Source: a virus (Duplodnaviria > Heunggongvirae > Uroviricota > Caudoviricetes). Taken from it: a stretch of 8,137 nt of DNA. The stretch lies in IMG/VR virus record IMGVR_UViG_2778261702_000016; one strand, given 5' to 3'. The stretch's first letter is position 1; each line of letters opens with the position of its first letter. Below are positions 1 to 8,137 of the stretch, piece after piece. The position numbers were made by a program, and so were the translations under genes. The notes beneath the pieces are model-generated. The model saw only the letters and a program-made list of their open reading frames with translations, made no database searches and was not told the origin of the DNA.

Positions 1-259
1 CCACTGTACATCTGGCCACCCTGATACCTTCGCGTAACAACTGGCGCCAGACTTTACGCACACCGTACACCTGATGATTTTCATCGTATACGCGCTGTAT
101 CTCTCTCTTCAGCCAGTCATCGCGCTGCGCACGGGCACTGCGTTTATCCGGATGATGTCGCTGTTGCTGACAGTGGTAATACGTTGACGGGGCAATATGC
201 AGTTCACTGCATACCGGTCCGACCCCGTACTGCTCACGCAGCTTATCCAGCAGCGGCAT
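1..259 (-). CDS. IS3-family transposase OrfB (catalytic part), 5' 86 codons only, runs off window edge; normally made as an OrfAB fusion by -1 frameshifting
   Basis: Minus-strand frame from ATG at 259..257 translates [36 protein letters not shown]... with no stop to position 2; A-rich slippery run (plus strand TTTTTT 262..267) overlaps the orfA stop. Confidence 0.85.
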   Translation of the reverse strand, partial: MPLLDKLREQYGVGPVCSELHIAPSTYYHCQQQRHHPDKRSARAQRDDWLKREIQRVYDENHQVYGVRKVWRQLLREGIRVARCTV

Positions 260-585
260 TATTTTTTCCAGAGGCGGTCGAACTCCGCCTTCGCAAAATA
301 AGCGGAAGCCTGGCGAAGGATATCGTTACTGCGGCGCAGTTCACGATTTTCACGTTCCAGCTCTTTCAGACGCTGACGTTCAGCGGTGGTGAGTCCACCA
401 TCACCGCCCCCGGTATCCCGCTCATGCTGACGAACCCACACACGCAGAGTCTCTGGTGTACAGCCAATCTTTGGGGCAATGGAACAAATTGCCGCCCATT
501 GTGAGTCATATTCGCCCTGACTTTCCAGAACCATACGGACTGCCCGTTGACGGACCTCGGGGGAAAAACGTGTATTTTTAGTCAT
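259..585 (-). CDS. IS3-family transposase OrfA (helix-turn-helix DNA-binding part), IS629-like
   Basis: 108-aa [29 protein letters not shown]...[30 protein letters not shown] with leucine-zipper-like C-terminus typical of IS3 OrfA; start 55 bp inside the IS left end. Confidence 0.9.
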
Positions 586-639
586 CCTGTTTACCTCTTT
601 CTCAGGGAGTTTAGTCTCCAGGATTCCCGGGGCGGTTCA

Positions 640-1172
640 ATCTGCTGGCCGGAACTAATGAATTTATTGGTGAAGGTGACGCATACATTCCGCCTCATAC
701 AGGTCTGCCAGCAAACAGTACCGATATTGCACCGCCAGATATTCCGGCTGGCTTCGTGGCTGTTTTCAACAGTAATGAGGCATCGTGGCATCTCGTTGAA
801 GATCATCGGGGTAAAACGGTTTATGACGTGGCTTCCGGCGACGCGTTATTTATTTCTGAACTCGGTCCGTTACCGGAAAATGTTACCTGGTTGTCGCCGG
901 ATGGAGAGTGTCAGAAGTGGAACGGCACATCCTGGGCGAAAGATGCAGAAGCAGAAAAACTGTTTCGGGTACGGGAGGCAGAAGAAACAAAAAACAGCCT
1001 GATGCAGGTAGCCAGTGAGCATATTGCGCCACTTCAGGATGCCGTAGATTTGGATATTGCGACGGAGGAAGAGGCATCGTTACTGGCTGCATGGAAGACA
1101 TATCGGGTATTGTTGAATCGTGTTGATACAACAGTAGCAGCGGATGTTGAGTGGCCAGTCGCCCCACAATAA
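640..1172 (+). pseudogene. tfa: Tail fiber assembly protein (Tfa / P2 gpG family), 5'-truncated by the IS insertion at 639/640
   Basis: Frame open from 642 ([43 protein letters not shown]...[30 protein letters not shown], stop 1170..1172) with no ATG; the track start at 756 is a GTG. About 15 N-terminal codons are missing, replaced by the IS end. Confidence 0.85.
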
Positions 1173-1178
1173 AAAGAA

Positions 1179-1208
1179 AAAGCCATCGACAGAAATATCG
1201 ATGGCTTT
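1179..1208 (-). terminator. Intrinsic terminator for the acetyltransferase gene (possibly bidirectional, also behind tfa)
   Basis: Perfect 11-bp inverted repeat AAAGCCATCGA / TCGATGGCTTT (1179..1189 and 1198..1208) with 8-nt loop; on the minus strand it is followed by TTCTTTTTATT; sits between convergent stops at 1172 and 1216. Confidence 0.65.
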
Positions 1209-1215
1209 ATGTACT

Positions 1216-1788
1216 CTATTTATACAATACAACACCACTCTTTTTAGTTATATATGTGCAGTTTGATGGTATATCTTTATTTATAAAAGACATTGCACCT
1301 ATTTTTACATTATCCCCAATTTTACGTGATAATCCAATGATGCAACAATTAGCTCCGATATCAACGTTACTACCAATTTTTACTCTTGAACTAGGCATAT
1401 CACCATCTATCTGTCCAATGGTAGTATTCTGTCGTAATACCAGATTTTCACCCGCATCAACAGCAAAATGAACAACAATTCCAGCATGATGGGGAATTGT
1501 CAACCCTTTTCCAATATTTGCGCCCAATCCTATTTCACAACCAAACTTGTTAATTATTTTACTGTTTAACTTTTTGGCTGCTTTCTTATGTAATTTATTA
1601 CCATTAATATACATTTCGTTAGCCAACCGCCACCAGAAAAGGAAATTCCGGTTACGCTGCTTTTTCTCTCTTAAAAGCCTCCAGATATCCATACGTTTCC
1701 GCCGAATTACTTCATGTTTCCAGAAGTTTTTTAAATTAGTAGAGTTTCCAAATAAAACAAAGTGAATTGCCATTAAGTAAGATAGCAC
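1216..1788 (-). CDS. Hexapeptide-repeat (left-handed beta-helix) acetyltransferase, CysE/WcaB serine-acetyltransferase-like; probable polysaccharide O-acetyltransferase carried as phage cargo
   Basis: Motifs GCEIGLGANIGKGLTIPHHAGIVVHFAVDAGENLVLRQNTTIGQ...VKIGSNVDIGANCCIIG...IGDNVKIGAMSFINKDIPSN match the SAT/WcaB hexapeptide core. Start set at GTG 1788 (AAGGAG 6 nt upstream); longest ORF would start at ATG 1821. Stop TAG 1216..1218. Visibly AT-rich versus neighbours. Confidence 0.8.
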   Translation of the reverse strand: MLSYLMAIHFVLFGNSTNLKNFWKHEVIRRKRMDIWRLLREKKQRNRNFLFWWRLANEMYINGNKLHKKAAKKLNSKIINKFGCEIGLGANIGKGLTIPHHAGIVVHFAVDAGENLVLRQNTTIGQIDGDMPSSRVKIGSNVDIGANCCIIGLSRKIGDNVKIGAMSFINKDIPSNCTYITKKSGVVLYK

Positions 1789-1839
1789 GATAATCTCCTT
1801 AATTATTATTTCAGACCACACATGTTATAAGGTTAAGAG

Positions 1840-1868
1840 ATTATAAAATCCTGTTATTTGTTATTCAA
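1840..1868 (-). promoter_or_regulatory. Near-consensus sigma70 promoter driving the acetyltransferase gene
   Basis: Minus strand TTGAAT (1868..1863), 17-bp spacer, TATAAT (1845..1840); predicted transcript start about 1833, leaving a roughly 45-nt leader to the GTG at 1788. Confidence 0.55.
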
Positions 1869-1944
1869 AAACAATTTTCTGAGAAGGACATACAACAGCA
1901 AGTCGCCAGTCACCTTCATCAGGAAATTGGCGACATACGTTAAA

Positions 1945-2439
1945 TCAGAGCAGCCCCTTAACTGAGCTGGCCGCGCTATTAAGGGATGATGTCACCTTAT
2001 CTTTGAAGCCGGACAGCATATCGCTGAACGATGAGGATTGCAGGCGCTCCCGCAAATCCTCATCACAGCGTTCAAGAGTCAGTGAAAATTCTATCTTTTT
2101 CGCCTTACCGTAGCGATCAAACTCGGAGCGGGTCGTATTCGTTCCGGTCAGGACATACATGCCGTAAATCTGCCCGACGCCATCAATCAAAGGCCAAGGA
2201 CGTCCTGTATATGCCTGCGTGGTCAACAACGACAGCGACACTTCGCCACCAGTAATCTCAGGATAAAGAACACCAGAAAGAACGATGCGATCATCACCTG
2301 CACCGATATACTGCCAGCTTGCTGAACGGTTAACGCGTTCATTTTTCACATGTCGCCAGCTTTTGTTTTGCTGTAACTGCTGATGCGGCAACGTGCGCAG
2401 CTCAAAAACAAACATGCCGTAGATCATCATCATGGCCAT
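1945..2439 (-). CDS. Phage tail protein U (P2 gpU family)
   Basis: MAMMMIYGMFVFELRTLPHQQLQ...WQYIGAGDDRIVLSGVLYPEITGG...PWPLIDGVGQIYGMYVL...KIEFSLTLERCDE matches the gpU family pattern. AGGAG is spaced better for the second ATG (2433) than the first (2439). Confidence 0.85.
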   Translation of the reverse strand: MAMMMIYGMFVFELRTLPHQQLQQNKSWRHVKNERVNRSASWQYIGAGDDRIVLSGVLYPEITGGEVSLSLLTTQAYTGRPWPLIDGVGQIYGMYVLTGTNTTRSEFDRYGKAKKIEFSLTLERCDEDLRERLQSSSFSDMLSGFKDKVTSSLNSAASSVKGLL

Positions 2440-2445
2440 GACTCC

Positions 2446-3282
2446 TCAATCTTTATCGTAAAAACTGCCACGCCTGGCACGGGCGCGCCGTTCCATTTCT
2501 GCCCTGACCATTTCGCCGACCAGTTTCGCCAGTTCGCGGGGATTCTGCGTAACAACGTTATGCAGATGAACATGAATTTCACCGCCAAATCCGGAGGCAA
2601 CAGGCTCCCGGTTACGGGAAGTTGCAGGAACTGATGCCACTGGCGATCGTATGGCCTCCACCACCGGGCGGGAGCTGGCCGCAACAACAGGGACCAGCGC
2701 CGGAGGCAGCGGAGCCGGGACCACGGGTGTGATATTAATTGCGGGGGCAGGCTTACTGACCTGCGCAATCTTCCGCTCCTGCCACTCCCCACGAACAGCA
2801 AGTGCGCGGGGCAGGTTCTTAAAGACAATATCGCCGGGGCCAATGCGTTTTTTTGTCTCATCAACCAGCTTACCTGTGTTATCAGCAATTTTGCTGAGTC
2901 TGCGTAGCGTGCCGGTATTGCTGTCTGTGAGAGGTTTGTTGTCTTTGGGTTTATCATCTCCGGTGCCATTGCTATTTCCCGCAGACTTCGGCGGATTGAT
3001 TTTCGCAATGTCTCCCTGAAACAGAGCAACCTTGTCCTGAAGAATGGCCGCACGTTGTGCGTCTTCGATTTTCTTGCGCGCCCTTTCCGCTTCATCCGGA
3101 AGCACACCGAGTTTTTCAAGTATCCACGCCAGCGTATCCAGCAACATTTTTGCAGGCGTCAGAACAAGCTGTAACGCACCACCAAGAACGTTACCGAATA
3201 CCTCGCCAGCACTGGTACATTTATCCAGCGTTTCCTTGCTGGACTCCATCGGTGACAGCAGCGATTTAAACCAGTTAAACAC
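2446..3282 (-). CDS. Tail tape measure protein, C-terminal segment (second half of a frame-disrupted gene)
   Basis: Frame open from 3306 to stop at 2446; track start is a GTG at 3282. Sequence FNWFKSLLSPMESSKETL...REPVASGFGGEIHVHLHNVV... continues the upstream tape-measure ORF in a different frame; stop lies 6 nt before the gpU ribosome-binding site. Confidence 0.7.
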   Translation of the reverse strand: MFNWFKSLLSPMESSKETLDKCTSAGEVFGNVLGGALQLVLTPAKMLLDTLAWILEKLGVLPDEAERARKKIEDAQRAAILQDKVALFQGDIAKINPPKSAGNSNGTGDDKPKDNKPLTDSNTGTLRRLSKIADNTGKLVDETKKRIGPGDIVFKNLPRALAVRGEWQERKIAQVSKPAPAINITPVVPAPLPPALVPVVAASSRPVVEAIRSPVASVPATSRNREPVASGFGGEIHVHLHNVVTQNPRELAKLVGEMVRAEMERRARARRGSFYDKD

Positions 3283-5258
3283 CTGGCTGAACCGCTTCCG
3301 ATTACGTCAAAAACAGGGCCAAACCGTTCAAAGGTGTCGCGCAACGGGGTCAGCCTTTCCATAATCCCGCTGAACACCCCGGCAAAGAAAGCCCTGATAG
3401 GATCCCAGTATTTCCAGATAAGAACGGCAGCTCCGGCAAGCGCAGCCACGATAAGACCAACCGGACTGAACAACGCCCCGATAACGCCTCCCAGTAAAGA
3501 AACGGAACCCGTCACCATTCCCCATAGCGCAGGTAACACCCTGACGACATTCATTGACCGGGTAAGAATGTCAAAACCAAGACGCAGGGTGGCCAGCTTC
3601 CCGTAAAGCACCCCAATAACCAGCGACAACGAGCCAATCGTTGCAGTCATTGCCAGCAACGCACCGCCTGCTATCAGTAGCTGGCGCGTCAGTACCGGAT
3701 GGGCCTGCGCCAGCGAGGTGATTTTTTCAAGCACCCGCGTGAGCCACTGCGTGACAGAACGCAGCGGACCGTCAACCAGATCACTGATGCGAATACGAAG
3801 ACCTTCCCATGCGCTGTCGAGATTTTTCAGGTCCCCATCAAGATTATCAGCCATTACTTTTGCGACGCGATCGGCCTCTCCCCTTGCCCCCTGCAATTCT
3901 CTGGTCAGTTTTTGCAGCTCTCCTGAACCAGCCGCCGCAACAAGCGTCTGCAAACCAACGAACGCCTCTTCTCCGGCGATGTCCTTGAAGAAGGAGACCT
4001 GGTCCACCTGTCCGTATTTTTGTGTCGCCTTATAGAGATCAAGCAGCACATCCTCCATCGGGCGCATTTTGCCTCTGGCGTCAGCAACTGACACCCCCAG
4101 CTCTTTCAGTGCATCAGCCGCAGCTTTTGGCGGTGATGCAAGGCGGGACAGACTTGCGCGCATGGCCGTGCCAGCATCGCTTCCGCGAAGACCATTATTG
4201 GCAAGCATCCCGGCCATGGCCGCCGCTTCTTCAAGACTGATACCAAGTTTTGCGGCAACCGGACCGGTATACTTCATGGTTTCGCCCAGCGCGCGTAAAT
4301 CAGTATTGGTCCGGGTAAATGCTGCTGTCAGCGTATCGCCCACCCGGTCCATTTGATCGGCTGTCAGGTTGAACTGTGTGAGGATATTGGAGCCTATATC
4401 AGCCGTCTCGCCGAGTTCGACGCCACCTGCCAGCGCCATATTAAGAACACCGGGCAATGCGGCCTGAATGGCCTGCGGAGTAAAACCAGCCATTGCCAGA
4501 AAGCTCTGCCCACTGGCGGCATCACTCGCAGTAAACTGTGTTTCAGCAAGTTTTAACGCCTGCTCACGCAGCGCCTTAAACTGCGGGCTGTTTTTGTCGA
4601 TTCGCGTCAGTGCCTGAACGCGGGACATCTCTTTGCCGAACCCGATCGCAGGCTGCAAAAAACGCCCGGCAGCATAGCCGCCCGCCGCTGCCGCACCAAT
4701 TGCCAGCGCACCACCTGTTTTCAGTTTTCCCGCGGTTTCCTGCGCGTGCGAATACCGCTCACGCGCCTGCGTTACACGCGCAAGCGCCTGCCGTTCGCGT
4801 TCAAGCTGGTTGTTGTATTGTTCGGTGCGTCTGATGGCCTGCTGAATGGTGTTATCGCTGCCTGTCAGGGAAATGCCGTGGCGTTTCAGCTCTCCGCCAA
4901 GTTCCCTCATTTTCTGAATTTCCCGTGTGCGCGATTCATTCAGGCGTTCAAGCCGGGTGCTTAACTGCTGCATCAGCTTTTGTTGTTTTTCGCTGAGCAC
5001 TGTACCCGTGCGTTGTAACTGATTAAGGGCGTTAAGCTGGCGTCGTGCTTTCACGATGCCAGCATCCGCTTTACTGACAGCGTCGCGGGCGCGCTCAAAT
5101 GATCGCGCCTGACGCTCGAGATTTTTGATCGCCCCCTGCGTTCGCTGGATGGAGTCACCAAACTGCCCCATCAGGCGGCGTGCGTTTTCGGCAGGTCGGG
5201 TCAGCCTGTCAACGGCGCTGAAAGCGACCCGGATATCAAGAGTCTTCATTGTCTGCAT
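3159..5258 (-). CDS. Tail tape measure protein (P2 gpT-like), N-terminal segment; reading frame lost near 3290
   Basis: Long alpha-helical Q/R/L/A-rich ORF with Gly/Ala-rich transmembrane-like stretches typical of tape measure proteins, placed between chaperone and gpU. Track start 5285 is GTG; first ATGs at 5258 and 5249 overlap the E' stop. The last ~44 codons before the stop at 3159 look out-of-frame (SARCLTGLNRCCHRWSPARKRW...). Confidence 0.8.
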   Translation of the reverse strand: MQTMKTLDIRVAFSAVDRLTRPAENARRLMGQFGDSIQRTQGAIKNLERQARSFERARDAVSKADAGIVKARRQLNALNQLQRTGTVLSEKQQKLMQQLSTRLERLNESRTREIQKMRELGGELKRHGISLTGSDNTIQQAIRRTEQYNNQLERERQALARVTQARERYSHAQETAGKLKTGGALAIGAAAAGGYAAGRFLQPAIGFGKEMSRVQALTRIDKNSPQFKALREQALKLAETQFTASDAASGQSFLAMAGFTPQAIQAALPGVLNMALAGGVELGETADIGSNILTQFNLTADQMDRVGDTLTAAFTRTNTDLRALGETMKYTGPVAAKLGISLEEAAAMAGMLANNGLRGSDAGTAMRASLSRLASPPKAAADALKELGVSVADARGKMRPMEDVLLDLYKATQKYGQVDQVSFFKDIAGEEAFVGLQTLVAAAGSGELQKLTRELQGARGEADRVAKVMADNLDGDLKNLDSAWEGLRIRISDLVDGPLRSVTQWLTRVLEKITSLAQAHPVLTRQLLIAGGALLAMTATIGSLSLVIGVLYGKLATLRLGFDILTRSMNVVRVLPALWGMVTGSVSLLGGVIGALFSPVGLIVAALAGAAVLIWKYWDPIRAFFAGVFSGIMERLTPLRDTFERFGPVFDVIGSGSARCLTGLNRCCHRWSPARKRWINVPVLARYSVTFLVVRYSLF

Positions 5259-5765
5259 TCCCGCTGCGAAGTGCCGCCCGCTCACGCCAGCTAACCACTT
5301 CGCCGGGCGTCATCATGAAGATTTCGGCGGGCGACCAGTTAAAAATAACGGCAATATCTGCCACAAAGTCTTCTATGTGCTCAAAGCACACAACCGTGAT
5401 CAGGCTTCCGTCGCCTGTTCGTTCTTCCCGCCAGAGTCCGCACCGCTCAAAAAATTTACGGCAACCACACATAACTGAATAAAGTCACGGGATGCCATTT
5501 TTTTGATCGTCACTTCATCCAGTCGCGGTGATGTCACGCGTGACAGCAGCGTAAACATGGATTCCGCTTTCAGATTCAGCACATCAGACAGCGACAAATC
5601 TCGCAGAGATCCAGCCTGCTCAATAGCCCCGGTGATCTCCACATACGTGATTTTTTCGCCGCCTCGCTCAATTGGTTGGGTAAGTTTTACACCACGCTCA
5701 CTGGTTTCTTTCACAGTGTCAGTAACTACCGTGTTTTCGGTATCGATGTTTTTCGTCTCTTTCAT
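5236..5765 (-). CDS. Tail assembly chaperone E+E' (product of programmed -1 ribosomal frameshift)
   Basis: The -1 frame downstream of the slippery site reads FFERCGLWREERTGDGSLITVVCFEHIEDFVADIAVIFNWSPAEIFMMTPGEVVSWRERAALRSGNADNEDS to a stop at 5236..5238, giving the P2 E/E' arrangement immediately upstream of the tape measure gene. Confidence 0.65.
5400..5765 (-). CDS. Phage tail assembly chaperone (P2 gpE family)
   Basis: 121-aa ORF MKETKNIDTENTVVTDTVKETSERGVKLTQPIERGGEKITYVEITGA...; AAAGGAG ribosome-binding site (plus 5774..5780) 8 nt upstream of ATG 5765; small acidic protein between tube and tape measure genes. Confidence 0.85.
   Translation of the reverse strand: MKETKNIDTENTVVTDTVKETSERGVKLTQPIERGGEKITYVEITGAIEQAGSLRDLSLSDVLNLKAESMFTLLSRVTSPRLDEVTIKKMASRDFIQLCVVAVNFLSGADSGGKNEQATEA
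5448..5454 (-). promoter_or_regulatory. Slippery heptamer T_TTT_TTG for programmed -1 frameshifting E to E+E'
   Basis: Minus strand GTA AAT TTT TTG AGC in the E frame (VNFLS); the heptanucleotide TTTTTTG is the plus-strand CAAAAAA at 5448..5454. Confidence 0.6.
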
Positions 5766-5819
5766 CAGGAAACTCCTTTCAGTCAGAGGCGACGCACTGC
5801 GCCGCCTGCATATTACTTA

Positions 5820-6332
5820 TCAGCCAAGCCCAAGCGCGGAACGGATGCGATCGGGCACAATGTCCTTGCCGTCCTTCCGGTAAATGAAGTTCAGCAGGTC
5901 AATCTCCCACAACGGGCGATCGTTAACACTCAGCTTGTAGTAGGTGTTTTTAATGGCGTAAGTGTGTGATGTGGCTTCGCCCTGTTTGGCTTCCCCCATA
6001 TCAATTTCCGTCACACGTCCGCGCATTTCGACTTCATACAGGTCGCTTTCATCATCGGTGTAGTATTCCCCCGCAAAACGCAGTAGCGTGCCGTCAATCG
6101 TGCCGCCATACTTCAGGAACAGCTCACGAACTGCGCCCCCCATGACAAAGCTCGCATCAAGCGCGGAGTCGTCCAGGCCGAGGTCAATACTTACCGCACC
6201 CATCATGCCACCACCCCGGTAGCTGTCGGTTTTGCGCGTCAGTTTAGGCAGGGTGACGGACGTCACCTTACCCACTTCGTTTTCACCATCCACAAACAGC
6301 GTAAAAAAGCGAAGATGTTTTGGTACAGCCAT
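5820..6332 (-). CDS. Phage major tail tube protein (P2 gpFII family)
   Basis: 170-aa ORF MAVPKHLRFFTLFVDGENEVGKVTSVTLPKLTRKTDSYRGGGMMGAVSIDLGLD...YYKLSVNDRPLWEIDLLN matches the FII tail tube pattern; start ATG overlaps the sheath stop. Confidence 0.9.
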   Translation of the reverse strand: MAVPKHLRFFTLFVDGENEVGKVTSVTLPKLTRKTDSYRGGGMMGAVSIDLGLDDSALDASFVMGGAVRELFLKYGGTIDGTLLRFAGEYYTDDESDLYEVEMRGRVTEIDMGEAKQGEATSHTYAIKNTYYKLSVNDRPLWEIDLLNFIYRKDGKDIVPDRIRSALGLG

Positions 6333-7516
6333 CAGGCACCTCCCAGCACCGCAAATGCGGGACCAAAGAATTCATCAGTAAACGACTGGTAAAGCTCCAT
6401 GTCTTCCAGCGGAGGAACGGGCGTATATTTGTAGCGAATACGCACACGCCCCTGACGTAAATTCGTGGTGCTGTTATCCTCGATGTCATACCAGCACTCC
6501 GCGCCAATCAGTTTCCCGGCAGTAACCAGTGAATCCAGTTTTGCCCTGATGGCACTGATAACATCCTTCACGTTCGCAGGTGTCAGTGGACTGTCGATGG
6601 TTTCAAACTGCGCTTCCGCAATTGAATCAGCCAGCACCTGTGCGGTTCGGGTATACACCTCAAAGATGTAGGCGTTCGTTTCCGGTGTGCGGTTGCCCCA
6701 GAAGCGGAACCCGTTGCGACGAATAATGGTCGTGATTTCTTTGTTGTTGAGGCTGTTGGCATCACTGTCTTCGGCCTGCAACGACCAGAACACATGCCTC
6801 GACATCCCAAGCACATTTTTAACCGGAACGTTGGACAGCGATTTGTGCCAGCCCTGCTCATGGTCAATGTACGCACGAAGGCCGCACGCATAAGCAGGCG
6901 CGGGGAACGTTTCGTTTTTGCCACTTTTCAGGTTGTAGGCGATGAAGTCAGGCCATAAGAGCATCACCTCACGTTCGTTGAATTTCTGGCGGTAGGTAAT
7001 CGCCTCAGCCATCGTGTTACAACCATGACATGTGGCATACACAAACGCGCGCAGTTTACCCGCAATCACGCACAGGGATTTTGTTACCGCCTCCGTGTCC
7101 AGCTCCGGCGCGGCCAGAATACGCGGACGGTATCCGATGCTTTCATCCTGCTCTGCAACAAGCAGCGCATACATCCCCGTATAGCTGCCGTCAGATTCAG
7201 AACCACCGATAACCAGTTGATCCTGCGTCTTACCGCCTTCTTCTTTGTGTTCAGCCACGCGAACGACGATCACTTTTGTGCTCACCTGGTCTGCGATAGC
7301 CTTAAGCGCACGATAAAGCGTCCCCGTAGTCCCGCATTTTCCCAGCACGTCATTGACGCGGGTCAGCAGTGTGGGCTTGTTCAGCGGGAACAGCTCCGCG
7401 TCCGCATCATCTGCCGTTGCCACGATACCGATAACACTGGAATCAACATCATTAATCGCTGTTACCAGGTCGGTACTTTCCGTAACACGGGCACCATGAA
7501 AACGAGTTTCACTCAT
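6332..7516 (-). CDS. Phage tail sheath protein (P2 gpFI family)
   Basis: 394-aa ORF MSETRFHGARVTESTDLVTAINDVDSSVIGIVATADDADAELFPLNKPTLLT...FRFWGNRTPETNAYIFEVYTRTAQVL... typical of contractile sheath proteins; AAGGGG 9 nt upstream of ATG 7516. Confidence 0.9.
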   Translation of the reverse strand: MSETRFHGARVTESTDLVTAINDVDSSVIGIVATADDADAELFPLNKPTLLTRVNDVLGKCGTTGTLYRALKAIADQVSTKVIVVRVAEHKEEGGKTQDQLVIGGSESDGSYTGMYALLVAEQDESIGYRPRILAAPELDTEAVTKSLCVIAGKLRAFVYATCHGCNTMAEAITYRQKFNEREVMLLWPDFIAYNLKSGKNETFPAPAYACGLRAYIDHEQGWHKSLSNVPVKNVLGMSRHVFWSLQAEDSDANSLNNKEITTIIRRNGFRFWGNRTPETNAYIFEVYTRTAQVLADSIAEAQFETIDSPLTPANVKDVISAIRAKLDSLVTAGKLIGAECWYDIEDNSTTNLRQGRVRIRYKYTPVPPLEDMELYQSFTDEFFGPAFAVLGGA

Positions 7517-7673
7517 AGCTTCAGCCCCTTGTATCCGTTAAATGATTCGGCAACAATCATCACCCACCACGCGCGTAATCTCACCCCTGCGCCGTTCTCC
7601 CGCCACGGCGACAACAAAAAGCAGTAACCCCCTCCGCACGCACATGCGACCATGCCGCACAGGGAGGGAACAG

Positions 7674-7940
7674 ATGACCGACACCACCATGCAATTGCTC
7701 AGTCAGGGCACAGACCACGTGAAAGTGCCGGATTTTGATATTCTCGCGGAGGGTAAAACGCTGTCAGGCGTGGCAGAGCGCCTGATGAGCCTGTCACTGA
7801 CCGACAACCGGGGATTTGAGGCGGACCAGCTCACCATCACGCTGGATGATGCAGATGGTCAGTTGCAGCTACCGCCACGGGGCGCGCGCCTGACGGTTCT
7901 CATTGGCTGGAAAGGAGAACCGCTGACAGAAAAAGGCACT
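7674..7940 (+). pseudogene. Phage late control gene D (gpD family tail protein), 3'-truncated after codon 89
   Basis: ATG 7674 preceded by GGGAGGG; MTDTTMQLLSQGTDHVKVPDFDILAEGKTLSGVAERLMSLSLTDNRGFEADQLTITLDDADGQLQLPPRGARLTVLIGWKGEPLTEKGT matches the gpD N-terminus (SLTDNRGFEAD.LTITLDD motif), then homology stops at 7941 and the frame terminates within 20 codons. Confidence 0.8.
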
Positions 7941-8010
7941 TGTAGATTCAATCTGTCAATGCAACACCCCTTTCAATTATCTCTTTCGGTGTTTTGAACT
8001 TCAGTGTCTT
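7941..8010 (+). mobile_element. Terminal fragment of an IS30-family element (inverted-repeat end), truncated by the IS3-family insertion at 8011
   Basis: 7941..7966 TGTAGATTCAATCTGTCAATGCAACA matches 23 of 26 positions of the IS30 terminal inverted repeat as I recall it (TGTAGATTCAATTGGTCAACGCAACA); starts exactly where gpD homology ends. Confidence 0.5.
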
Positions 8011-8137
8011 TGAACCGCCCCGGAAATCCTGGAGACTAAACTCCCTGAGAAAGAGGTAAACAGGATGACTAAAAATACTCGTTTTTCCCCCGAAGTCCGT
8101 CAGCGGGCGATTCGTATGGTTCTGGAAAGTCAGGATG
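8011..8137 (+). mobile_element. Second IS3-family insertion sequence (IS629-group, distinct variant), left end; runs off window
   Basis: Starts TGAACCGCCCCGGAAATCCTGGAGACTAAACTCCCTGAGAAAGAGGTAAACAGG; 118 of 127 aligned bases match the reverse complement of 513..639. Confidence 0.9.
8065..8137 (+). CDS. IS3-family transposase OrfA, first 24 codons (partial at window edge)
   Basis: ATG at 8065 after GAGG; translates [24 protein letters not shown], paralogous to the OrfA at 585..259 (V to I at residue 16). Confidence 0.85.
   Translation, partial: MTKNTRFSPEVRQRAIRMVLESQD

Follow-up and report, generated by a model that had tools for sequence, protein, structure and literature searches.

The 8,137-nt stretch of DNA analyzed here (the window) is a tail-gene remnant of the Escherichia coli O157:H7 prophage Sp13, a decayed P88-like member of the Peduoviridae. 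Taken as a whole, it is best explained, with high confidence, as a piece of Sp13 from the P88-like branch in which the orientation of the FI-U block is native and goes back to one ancestral inversion. Both the locus and its gene order are already known, the former as an annotated defective prophage and the latter as the standard order of a common enterobacterial P2-like group. The identical gene string is annotated in O157 Sakai as 'prophage Sp13, P2-like phage' (the EDL933 counterpart is, we assume, the prophage named CP-933T), and at least 80% of the window is held in one place by 517 complete genomes.

The contractile-tail module of the Peduoviridae is present in the window, with homologs of the sheath, the tube, the E/E' chaperone pair, the tape measure, U, and D. 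The features are as follows:

1..639, minus strand: truncated IS629/IS1203 copy, with orfA at 259-585 and the ALIL frameshift pseudoknot at 188-304; left edge of a 15.6-kb deletion
642..1172, plus strand: tfa, tail fiber assembly (Caudo_TAP, E 5e-40); first 15 codons removed by IS629
1179..1208, no strand: hairpin (13-bp stem) that separates tfa from the acetyltransferase gene, the two being convergent
1216..1788, minus strand: cargo acetyltransferase gene of low G+C (33-37%); left-handed beta-helix (hexapeptide) of the CysE/EpsC/WcaB type
1840..1868, minus strand: sigma-70-like promoter TTGAAT-17-TATAAT upstream of the acetyltransferase gene (consensus match only)
1945..2439, minus strand: gpU, tail protein (Phage_P2_GpU, E 1.5e-38), 46% identical to P2 U; last gene of the FI-U operon
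2446..5249, minus strand: gpT, tape measure pseudogene (PhageMin_Tail)
5236..5765, minus strand: gpE (5400-5765) and the E' frame (5236-5472), with Phage_P2_GpE at 5236-5391
5820..6332, minus strand: gpFII, tail tube (Phage_tube, E 1e-47)
6332..7516, minus strand: gpFI, tail sheath (sheath domains), 45% identical to P2 FI and 97-98% to P88-group sheaths
7517..7673, no strand: FI/D spacer of 157 bp with a dyad TCT-N12-ACA at 7596-7613 (center 7604.5); putative bidirectional late promoter
7674..7941, plus strand: gpD stub (baseplate hub, 'late control D'), first 89 codons only, 59% identical to P2 D residues 15-85
7942..8010, minus strand: end of an IS30-family element, which truncates gpD
8011..8137, plus strand: left end of a full IS629/IS1203 copy inserted in the IS30-family element; absent in Sakai

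A sequence-only reading of this DNA had placed tfa and gpD on the plus strand and FI through U on the minus strand. Pfam matches and tblastn with P2 proteins confirm this (G on the plus strand; FI, FII, E, T, and U on the minus strand; D on the plus strand at 7728-7937; E values 1e-10 to 1e-112), and the 157 bp given there as the distance between FI and the divergent gpD is exact. The gene identities hold as well, with the qualification that T is a pseudogene and that gpD, cut at 7941, is a stub of just 89 codons, while the tfa reading frame, taken to start at 756, has been corrected to 642, its 5' end being cut by IS629. The gpD stub is identical, in frame, to the beginning of the 368-residue D protein of the intact prophage L014, itself a Phage_GPD match, and homology of tfa to its L014 counterpart begins 45 nt inside that gene. 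Alignment of T to its homologs in L014, P88, and L013 reveals a frameshifting 1-nt deletion near 3293 and an in-frame 3-nt deletion near 4546; existing annotation, that of Sakai included, likewise marks the gene as frameshifted. The programmed -1 frameshift of E/E', a feature of the P2-like tail module, is predicted to be present: the P2-type slippery heptamer T TTT TTG is intact in the reading frame of E (5454-5448), and the E' frame stays open as far as 5236.

Compared by blastn with L014, the O157 prophage has lost 15.6 kb from the portal gene to the start of tfa, and with them the head, lysis, baseplate, and tail-fiber genes; at the right end, the remainder of D, ogr, and hok are missing. 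The ogr gene, which lies downstream of D in intact relatives, is absent from the window and from the rest of Sp13. Judged by its sequence, the O157 tail module is non-functional through the IS629-associated 15.6-kb deletion, the 1-nt deletion in T, the truncation of D after codon 89, and the loss of ogr. Sp13 has been described as defective, with most morphogenetic genes missing, yet it undergoes excision and replication after mitomycin C treatment, and an ogr homolog is located on the P4-like prophage Sp2 (PMC2669165).

The convergent junction between tfa and U is a cargo slot, here occupied by an acetyltransferase moron. Its product scores under every equivalog cutoff and lacks the CysE N-terminal domain; an alternative start is possible at GTG 1821. 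The gene adjoins tfa in the intact prophage too, and also occurs in large phages and in plasmids of ~98 kb. The sigma-70-like promoter at 1840..1868 would fit a moron gene expressed from the prophage, and the hairpin at 1179..1208 is terminator-like and probably works bidirectionally. An inverted match of 20 nt pairs the 5' region of tfa (661-680) with the acetyltransferase-U spacer (1909-1928) but is no better than other chance pairs.

The arrangement of the window recurs in intact phages and prophages. Positions 1939-7941 align as a single BLAST piece, at 91-97% identity, to P88, 500465-2, PhiR44_2, P884B11, PhiSM, and Chuche, and the FI/D junction is found in P88, PhiSM, PhiR44_2, 500465-2, and others. 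The comparison with an intact P2-like prophage that the sequence-only reading had proposed as a check shows the O157 locus to be collinear with the intact-looking prophage of FDAARGOS_1288 in two blocks, one of which spans window positions 639-7941 at 97.6%; the tfa-acetyltransferase-U junction is likewise present in this apparently complete prophage. P88 forms plaques, with EM images and a burst size of 65 reported in its publication, and PhiSM is described as 'fully functional'; both are thus functional relatives with divergent gpD and FI, the very observation that the earlier reading had named as refuting its inversion. Its fallback, a native arrangement, stands, although the lineage is not an undescribed one: it corresponds to known ICTV genera, and the locus is annotated as Sp13 in Sakai.

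The distribution of the divergent order points to a single origin. The adjacency of FI on the minus strand and D on the plus strand occurs in Serratia phage KSP20 and in phages of at least six ICTV genera (Xuanwuvirus, Gemsvirus, Novemvirus, Senquatrovirus, Reginaelenavirus, and Reipivirus; ICTV sets genus membership at a whole-genome nucleotide identity of ~70% or more), and the divergent junction is found in 1358 of 5426 complete E. coli genomes. When 80 species-representative loci were compared by the identity of their FI sheath to that of the window, every locus with at least 53.5% identity was divergent (39/39), and every locus with 51% or less had P2 order (40/40). A neighbor-joining tree of 83 FI proteins places the 40 divergent-order sequences, including that of the window, in one clade, separated by a clean bipartition. 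The window shows the traits of this P88-like clade, with D divergent from FI across a spacer of ~150-170 bp and U convergent with tail-fiber/tfa genes. Because divergence is perfectly split by FI identity and by the clade tree, the sequences argue for a single old inversion that became fixed in the branch's ancestor and defines the P88-like clade, and for no event at this locus. Since the midpoint root lies between the two groups, we infer the direction of change, from P2 order to P88 order, from host range, which is wider in the canonical group. No explicit statement of the inversion was found in the literature searched (P88, Sp13, CP-933T, Xuanwuvirus, Peduoviridae synteny, and 2026 P2-like diversity), and neither it nor the bidirectional promoter architecture considered below is explicitly stated in searchable papers, though the sequences have been public for years.

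The inversion would have carried the FI late promoter and its Ogr dyad along with the block, placing them beside gpD. On balance, we consider it slightly more likely than not that the unidirectional pF of P2 became, in this way, another bidirectional late promoter like pP/pO, its two -10 hexamers mirroring each other 48.5 nt from the dyad center. The single dyad at 7596-7613 would then serve two outward late promoters, leftward for FI-U and rightward for D, and the D-side transcript would continue to ogr in intact relatives. Late promoters of the Ogr/Delta type are recognized by TGT-N12-ACA centered ~55 nt upstream of the start, a weak -10, and no -35. The dyad in the window, TCT-N12-ACA, has one mismatch to this pattern and is accompanied by -10-like hexamers at the P2 distance, which face outward (GATGAT on the minus strand at 7561-7556 and GACCAT on the plus strand at 7648-7653) and end 48.5 nt from the dyad center; in P2, the -10 hexamer of pF ends 49.5 nt from the center of its dyad. 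E. coli clade members carry TCT instead of TGT in one half-site, while relatives have a perfect TGT-N12-ACA.

The position of the dyad is well conserved. All eight phages compared carry a single T[G/C]T-N12-ACA in the spacer, at 81.5-88.5 nt from the ATG of FI; for the seven whose D start is defined (all but KSP20), the distance to the ATG of D is 68.5-87.5 nt. Among the 39 divergent genome loci, the dyad lies 74.5-88.5 nt from the FI start in 34 and is absent, within one mismatch, in 5. When 28 non-redundant sequences are aligned on the dyad without gaps, nAnnAT hexamers end exactly 48.5 nt from the center on both sides. The extended motif GTTCT-N12-ACAACAAAA has only two copies in the 28 kb of P88, located in its two divergent late spacers, and the Ogr of the clade, an Ogr_Delta match, is 42% identical to that of P2. 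The short pattern T[G/C]T-N12-ACAA is not enriched relative to shuffled sequences (7 versus 6.6 expected in P88; 2 versus 2.2 expected in the window); hence the case for a promoter rests on position and conservation, not on counts. The spacer has the same geometry as the pP/pO pair of P2, late promoters that share one annotated activator site and start transcription 56 and 55 nt to either side of it; FI-U and D are therefore probably both driven from a single activator site.

Alternatively, the arrangement could be native with the activator site unshared, the dyad acting for FI only and D having an independent promoter or being transcribed from elsewhere. The distance from the dyad to FI would suit this, being the same as for the unidirectional pF in P2 and at canonical loci (78-85 nt), as would the predicted leader of the D transcript, only ~13 nt long. 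We nevertheless regard it as rather unlikely: the D-side nAnnAT, conserved at the mirror position in the 28 sequences, is absent in 14 canonical controls, a sigma-70 scan found no consensus promoter in the FI/D spacer, and in P2 a single site serves two divergent late promoters.

Another account would make FI-U a programmed invertible segment, switched by the Gin/Pin-type invertase encoded beside gpU in P88-like phages, and the invertase gene does abut gpU in P88 and 500465-2 and abuts FI in the canonical-order ENT90. However, the only crossover-type inverted repeats in P88 flank its tail-fiber segment (L001 16229-16293 and 19269-19333), and none of its repeats links the invertase-U junction with the FI-D junction. 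Inverted crossover sites of the Gin/Cin/Pin type were found neither at 1822-1944 and 7517-7673 nor at the P88 equivalents, the window has no invertase gene, and every clade relative sampled has the same orientation. We therefore reject such switching as very improbable, for lack of crossover sites and of any relative in the alternative orientation.

A recent inversion of the FI..U block (5.6 kb), either in this genome or somewhere in the O157 lineage, would correspond to the main proposal of the sequence-only reading, which put the breakpoints near 1822-1944 and 7517-7673. The block is indeed reversed relative to P2, and turning it would restore P2 order, but both junctions are uninterrupted in intact, functional relatives and in roughly one in four complete E. 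coli genomes, and P88 has an identical spacer of 157 bp. As that reading had also noted, a repeat search of the window confirms that there are no inverted repeats at either breakpoint. The collinear intact relatives already refute a rearrangement at this locus, which we rate as having next to no chance of being correct.

Recombination between the flanking inverted IS629 copies (1-639 and 8011 onward), whose ends at 516-640 and 8010-8134 are complementary at 94% over 125 nt and make up the window's sole long inverted repeat, is an equally negligible prospect and is rejected. Everything between the copies, from tfa and the cargo gene through U..FI to D, would turn as one, so that no gene would change orientation relative to another. 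In addition, the segment is oriented to the replication and parM genes just as it is in P88 and the intact FDAARGOS_1288 prophage, and Sakai has the same arrangement without the right-hand IS629.

The ancestral inversion thus remains our reading of the locus. P2 is no universal synteny template for the Peduoviridae. With two deep branches cleanly separated by the orientation of FI-U (39/39 versus 40/40), divergence of FI and D is no reason to call a rearrangement. This carries little weight as a discovery but has practical value for annotation and scanning; the putative shared-activator promoter would be a modest, testable addition to the P2 late-gene paradigm.

Among known systems, Sp13 of Sakai occupies the same chromosomal site, between yecA and leuZ-cysT-glyW, and has the same series of truncated IS629, tfa, acetyltransferase gene, U, T pseudogene, E, FII, FI, D stub, and IS30-family element; it lacks the extra full IS629 copy that the strain of the window carries inside the latter. 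P88 (Xuanwuvirus), the Citrobacter phage PhiSM, 500465-2, PhiR44_2, P884B11, and Chuche share U, T, E', E, FII, and FI on one strand with D divergent, and in the P88 group the FI/D spacer has the same length and sequence as that of the window. In contrast to the remnant, P88, PhiSM, and their close relatives are complete and functional, and between their tail-fiber genes and U, an invertible tail-fiber segment and a DNA invertase take the place of the acetyltransferase of the window. P2 (Peduovirus) has homologous FI, FII, E/E' (with the same TTTTTTG slippery site), T, U, and D at 30-59% amino acid identity. Its annotated record confirms the canonical order from which the sequence-only reading had argued, with H, G, and fun(Z) on the complement strand followed by FI, FII, E, T, U, D, and ogr; D is co-directional with FI..U in one operon, last and without a promoter of its own, whereas D of the window lies on the opposite strand. 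The cargo slot of P2, holding fun(Z), is upstream of FI, whereas that of the window is downstream of U. An Ogr-type activator and a dyad of the corresponding type are common to P2 and the clade of the window, and the pP/pO pair of P2 provides a precedent for one activator site with two divergent late promoters.

The window was laid out from an ORF listing, Pfam matches, and public annotation, and reads as follows:

1-639, minus strand: truncated IS629/IS1203
642-1172, plus strand: tfa
1216-1788, minus strand: hexapeptide acetyltransferase, G+C 33-37%
1945-2439, minus strand: gpU
2446-5249, minus strand: gpT
5236-5765, minus strand: E'/E
5820-6332, minus strand: FII
6332-7516, minus strand: FI
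7517-7673, no strand: 157-bp spacer
7674-7941, plus strand: first 89 codons of gpD
7942-8010, minus strand: end of an IS30-family element
8011-8137, plus strand: full IS629 copy, inserted into the IS30-family element

Searches by tblastn with P2 proteins as queries place G and D on the plus strand and FI, FII, E, T, and U on the minus strand, and together with the P2 record they confirm the strand assignment of the sequence-only reading, in which tfa and gpD oppose FI through U. The P2 order given there also agrees with the annotated record: H, G, and complement-strand fun(Z) come first, followed by FI, FII, E, E', T, U, D, and ogr. The gene layout stood in its orientations and needs amendment in three places: tfa lacks its first 15 codons, gpD is only a stub, and gpT is a pseudogene with two deletions that intact relatives lack, one of 1 nt near 3293, which causes a frameshift, and one of 3 nt near 4546, which keeps the frame. 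Separately, the tfa coding sequence wholly contains a match (191 bits; 937-1135, plus strand) to IS009, an Rfam family for a candidate small RNA of E. coli.

Many E. coli O157:H7 chromosomes match the entire window at 100% identity, and at least 80% of it sits at one place in each of 517 complete genomes. The chromosomal site is flanked by yecA on one side and by the leuZ-cysT-glyW tRNA genes on the other, and exactly the same gene string is annotated in strain Sakai as "prophage Sp13, P2-like phage." Sp13 is described as the sole P2-like prophage of O157 Sakai, with most of its morphogenetic functions defective, yet it excises and amplifies after mitomycin C (PMC2669165). An intact-looking prophage of FDAARGOS_1288 has complete replication, head, lysis, baseplate, fibre, and tail gene sets, as well as ogr, hok, and an intact D of 368 aa. 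Because blastn against this prophage returns only two collinear blocks for the O157 locus, one of them window 639-7941 at 97.6% identity, Sp13 is a phage of that type, altered in three respects: 15.6 kb from the portal gene to the tfa start is gone, with the truncated IS629 in place; all sequence beyond D codon 89 is absent; and T is frameshifted. Sp13 has also lost ogr. IS content at the locus varies among O157 strains (records L002 and L095): in Sakai the IS30-family element is uninterrupted by IS629, and other strains carry extra IS1203 or IS30 pieces in the matched span, giving record spans of 8.5-9.3 kb versus the 8.1-kb window.

The orientation of the FI-U block is not the product of a local event. 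The sequence-only reading had proposed an inversion at this locus, and had named intact, functional relatives with divergent gpD and FI as what would speak against it; P88 and PhiSM are such relatives. Window 1939-7941, from U to FI with the spacer and the D stub, aligns as a single collinear BLAST piece (91-97%) to P88, 500465-2, PhiR44_2, P884B11, PhiSM, and Chuche, and the left junction (tfa plus, acetyltransferase minus, U minus) recurs in the FDAARGOS_1288 prophage at 98.3% identity. P88, for which plaques, burst size, and EM images have been reported (PMC5285337), is annotated as H+, tfa+, tfa'-, H'-, invertase+, U-, T-, E'-, E-, FII-, FI-, D+, an order shared by 500465-2, and PhiSM is described as a fully functional temperate phage (PMC6456863). 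Invertase-driven switching of FI-U is unsupported, since the only crossover-type repeats of P88 flank its tail-fibre segment and the opposite orientation is seen in no relative. A flip by recombination between IS629 copies is excluded: it would leave the relative gene orientations unchanged, it is ruled out by how the segment lies with respect to the replication genes, and Sakai has no right-hand IS629. An assembly artefact is ruled out by hundreds of independent complete genomes. In three relatives (L012, L013, and the FDAARGOS_1288 prophage, L014), RefSeq labels gpD (e.g., L014 26529-27638) "VgrG/Pvc8 family," with a length of 266 aa, and places a spurious partial pseudogene ahead of it; translated from the P88-type start, it is uninterrupted at 368 aa, and the shorter calls are probably a start-site annotation error.

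The divergent order extends well beyond these phages. Of 5426 complete E. coli genomes, 1358 contain the FI/D junction (7250-7940) as one uninterrupted piece. By tblastn with FI and D, the two genes are adjacent on opposite strands in Enterobacter phiT5282H (Novemvirus), Klebsiella ST16-OXA48phi5.4 (Reipivirus), 3LV2017 (Reginaelenavirus), many Kp48xx phages, Serratia KSP20, and Salmonella SEN4/SEN5 (Senquatrovirus). The P2 order is instead seen in ENT90 and Yersinia vB_YenM_42.18, whose FI proteins share about 50% identity with that of the window. A tblastn-scored census covered 80 loci from species-representative genomes having an FI alignment, one of them unscorable owing to a short contig. 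At FI identities of at least 53.5%, D is divergent and directly upstream of FI in 39/39 loci, with ogr beyond D in 38; at 51% or below, D lies downstream of U in 40/40. The divergent loci represent 22 genera (Salmonella, Citrobacter, Enterobacter, Kosakonia, Klebsiella, Raoultella, Erwinia, Pantoea, Pectobacterium, Brenneria, Symbiopectobacterium, Yersinia, Serratia, Providencia, Morganella, Photorhabdus, Xenorhabdus, Mixta, Trabulsiella, Yokenella, Chania, and Dryocola), and the canonical group includes Burkholderia, Ralstonia, Acinetobacter, and Stutzerimonas in addition to enterobacteria. A neighbour-joining tree built from 83 FI proteins groups the 40 divergent-order sequences in a single clade. 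The simplest reading is a single inversion that became fixed early within one branch of the P2-like phages of enterobacteria. Since the canonical order is the more widely distributed one, we infer, on a tree that is not formally rooted, that the change ran from canonical to divergent.

No sigma-70 consensus promoter was found in the 157-bp spacer. Across eight phages the spacer has a mean identity of only 59%, with conservation of the block GACAACAAAAAG and of a T.T 12 nt upstream of the ACA in this block. The dyad T[G/C]T-N12-ACA (TCT-N12-ACA at 7596-7613 in the window) occurs exactly once in each of the eight spacers. Its distance to the FI ATG is 81.5-88.5 nt; to the D ATG it is 68.5-87.5 nt across the seven phages with a defined D start (KSP20, with none set, was omitted). 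KSP20, 3LV2017, and SEN5 carry a perfect P2-type TGT-N12-ACA, and the KSP20 dyad, GTTGTC-N10-GACAAC, has the GTTGT half-site of the annotated P2 activator-binding sites (pF, pO/pP, and pV). With at most one mismatch, the dyad lies 74.5-88.5 nt from the FI start in 34 of the 39 divergent genome loci and at 78-85 nt in canonical loci and P2; given these similar distances, the pF promoter probably moved along with the block. Information content in a gap-free, dyad-anchored set of 28 non-redundant sequences peaks at two nAnnAT hexamers, each with its end 48.5 nt from the dyad centre: one faces FI, and its mirror image lies on the D side. Fourteen canonical controls have the FI-side element, with only a T-rich terminator tail opposite. 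The window hexamers are:

7561-7556, minus strand: -10-like hexamer GATGAT, FI side
7648-7653, plus strand: -10-like hexamer GACCAT, D side

The Ogr protein of the clade shares 42% identity with that of P2 and matches Ogr_Delta. In P88, the extended motif GTTCT-N12-ACAACAAAA of the FI/D spacer is identical in the portal/scaffold spacer, and these are its only two occurrences in 28 kb. On this sequence evidence we modestly favor a single Ogr-type site serving both units, which would drive FI-U one way and D the opposite way. The stretch from the dyad to the D-side hexamer includes a conserved GC-rich element (consensus GCGCGCG, then CATG), at 7625-7647 and at the aligned spot in 28 relatives, and a conserved GCGTG lies on the FI side, 19-24 nt from the dyad centre. 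Elsewhere in P88 (L001 11386-11522, 12615), R/S-like genes abut the baseplate genes, and a V-type promoter gap and upstream dyad are absent.

The tfa-acetyltransferase cassette (639-1787) is 91-93% identical to tfa-acetyltransferase pairs in the large phages JL22 (99.6 kb) and vB_EcoM-Ro157c2YLVW (80.7 kb) and in E. coli plasmids of about 98 kb, which suggests that the acetyltransferase is a moron travelling with tfa among unrelated phage types. The protein is of EpsC/WcaB/CysE-type likeness and scores under every equivalog cut-off. Intact relatives show two cargo slots (L013 27874-29376; L014 27730-28899; L004 22382-23404; L011 778-2681): one from the tail-fibre/tfa genes to the U 3' end, holding a DUF262 protein, an invertase, or an acetyltransferase, and one from D to ogr, holding a PIN-domain, DUF3800, or hypothetical protein. 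A 20-nt inverted match (85%) between 661-680, in the tfa 5' part, and 1909-1928, in the acetyltransferase-U spacer, could be a relic of the inverted tfa' of a former invertible segment or plain chance.

The locus and its clade are already represented in databases and in ICTV taxonomy. We found no explicit account of the inversion or of a shared promoter in the literature searched, and describing them adds something small but testable and falls short of a discovery. P2 offers a precedent for the putative promoter pair: the -10 hexamer of pF, GAAAAT, has its end 49.5 nt from the centre of the dyad, and the divergent pP and pO are annotated with a single activator site in common, their transcription starts lying 56 and 55 nt to either side of it. 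The clade may have just two late control regions, both divergent, versus the three of P2 (the pP/pO shared site, pV, and pF). The window module shares gene content and the E/E' slippery site with the P2-like tail family, departs from the P2 gene order, and conforms to the P88-like clade.
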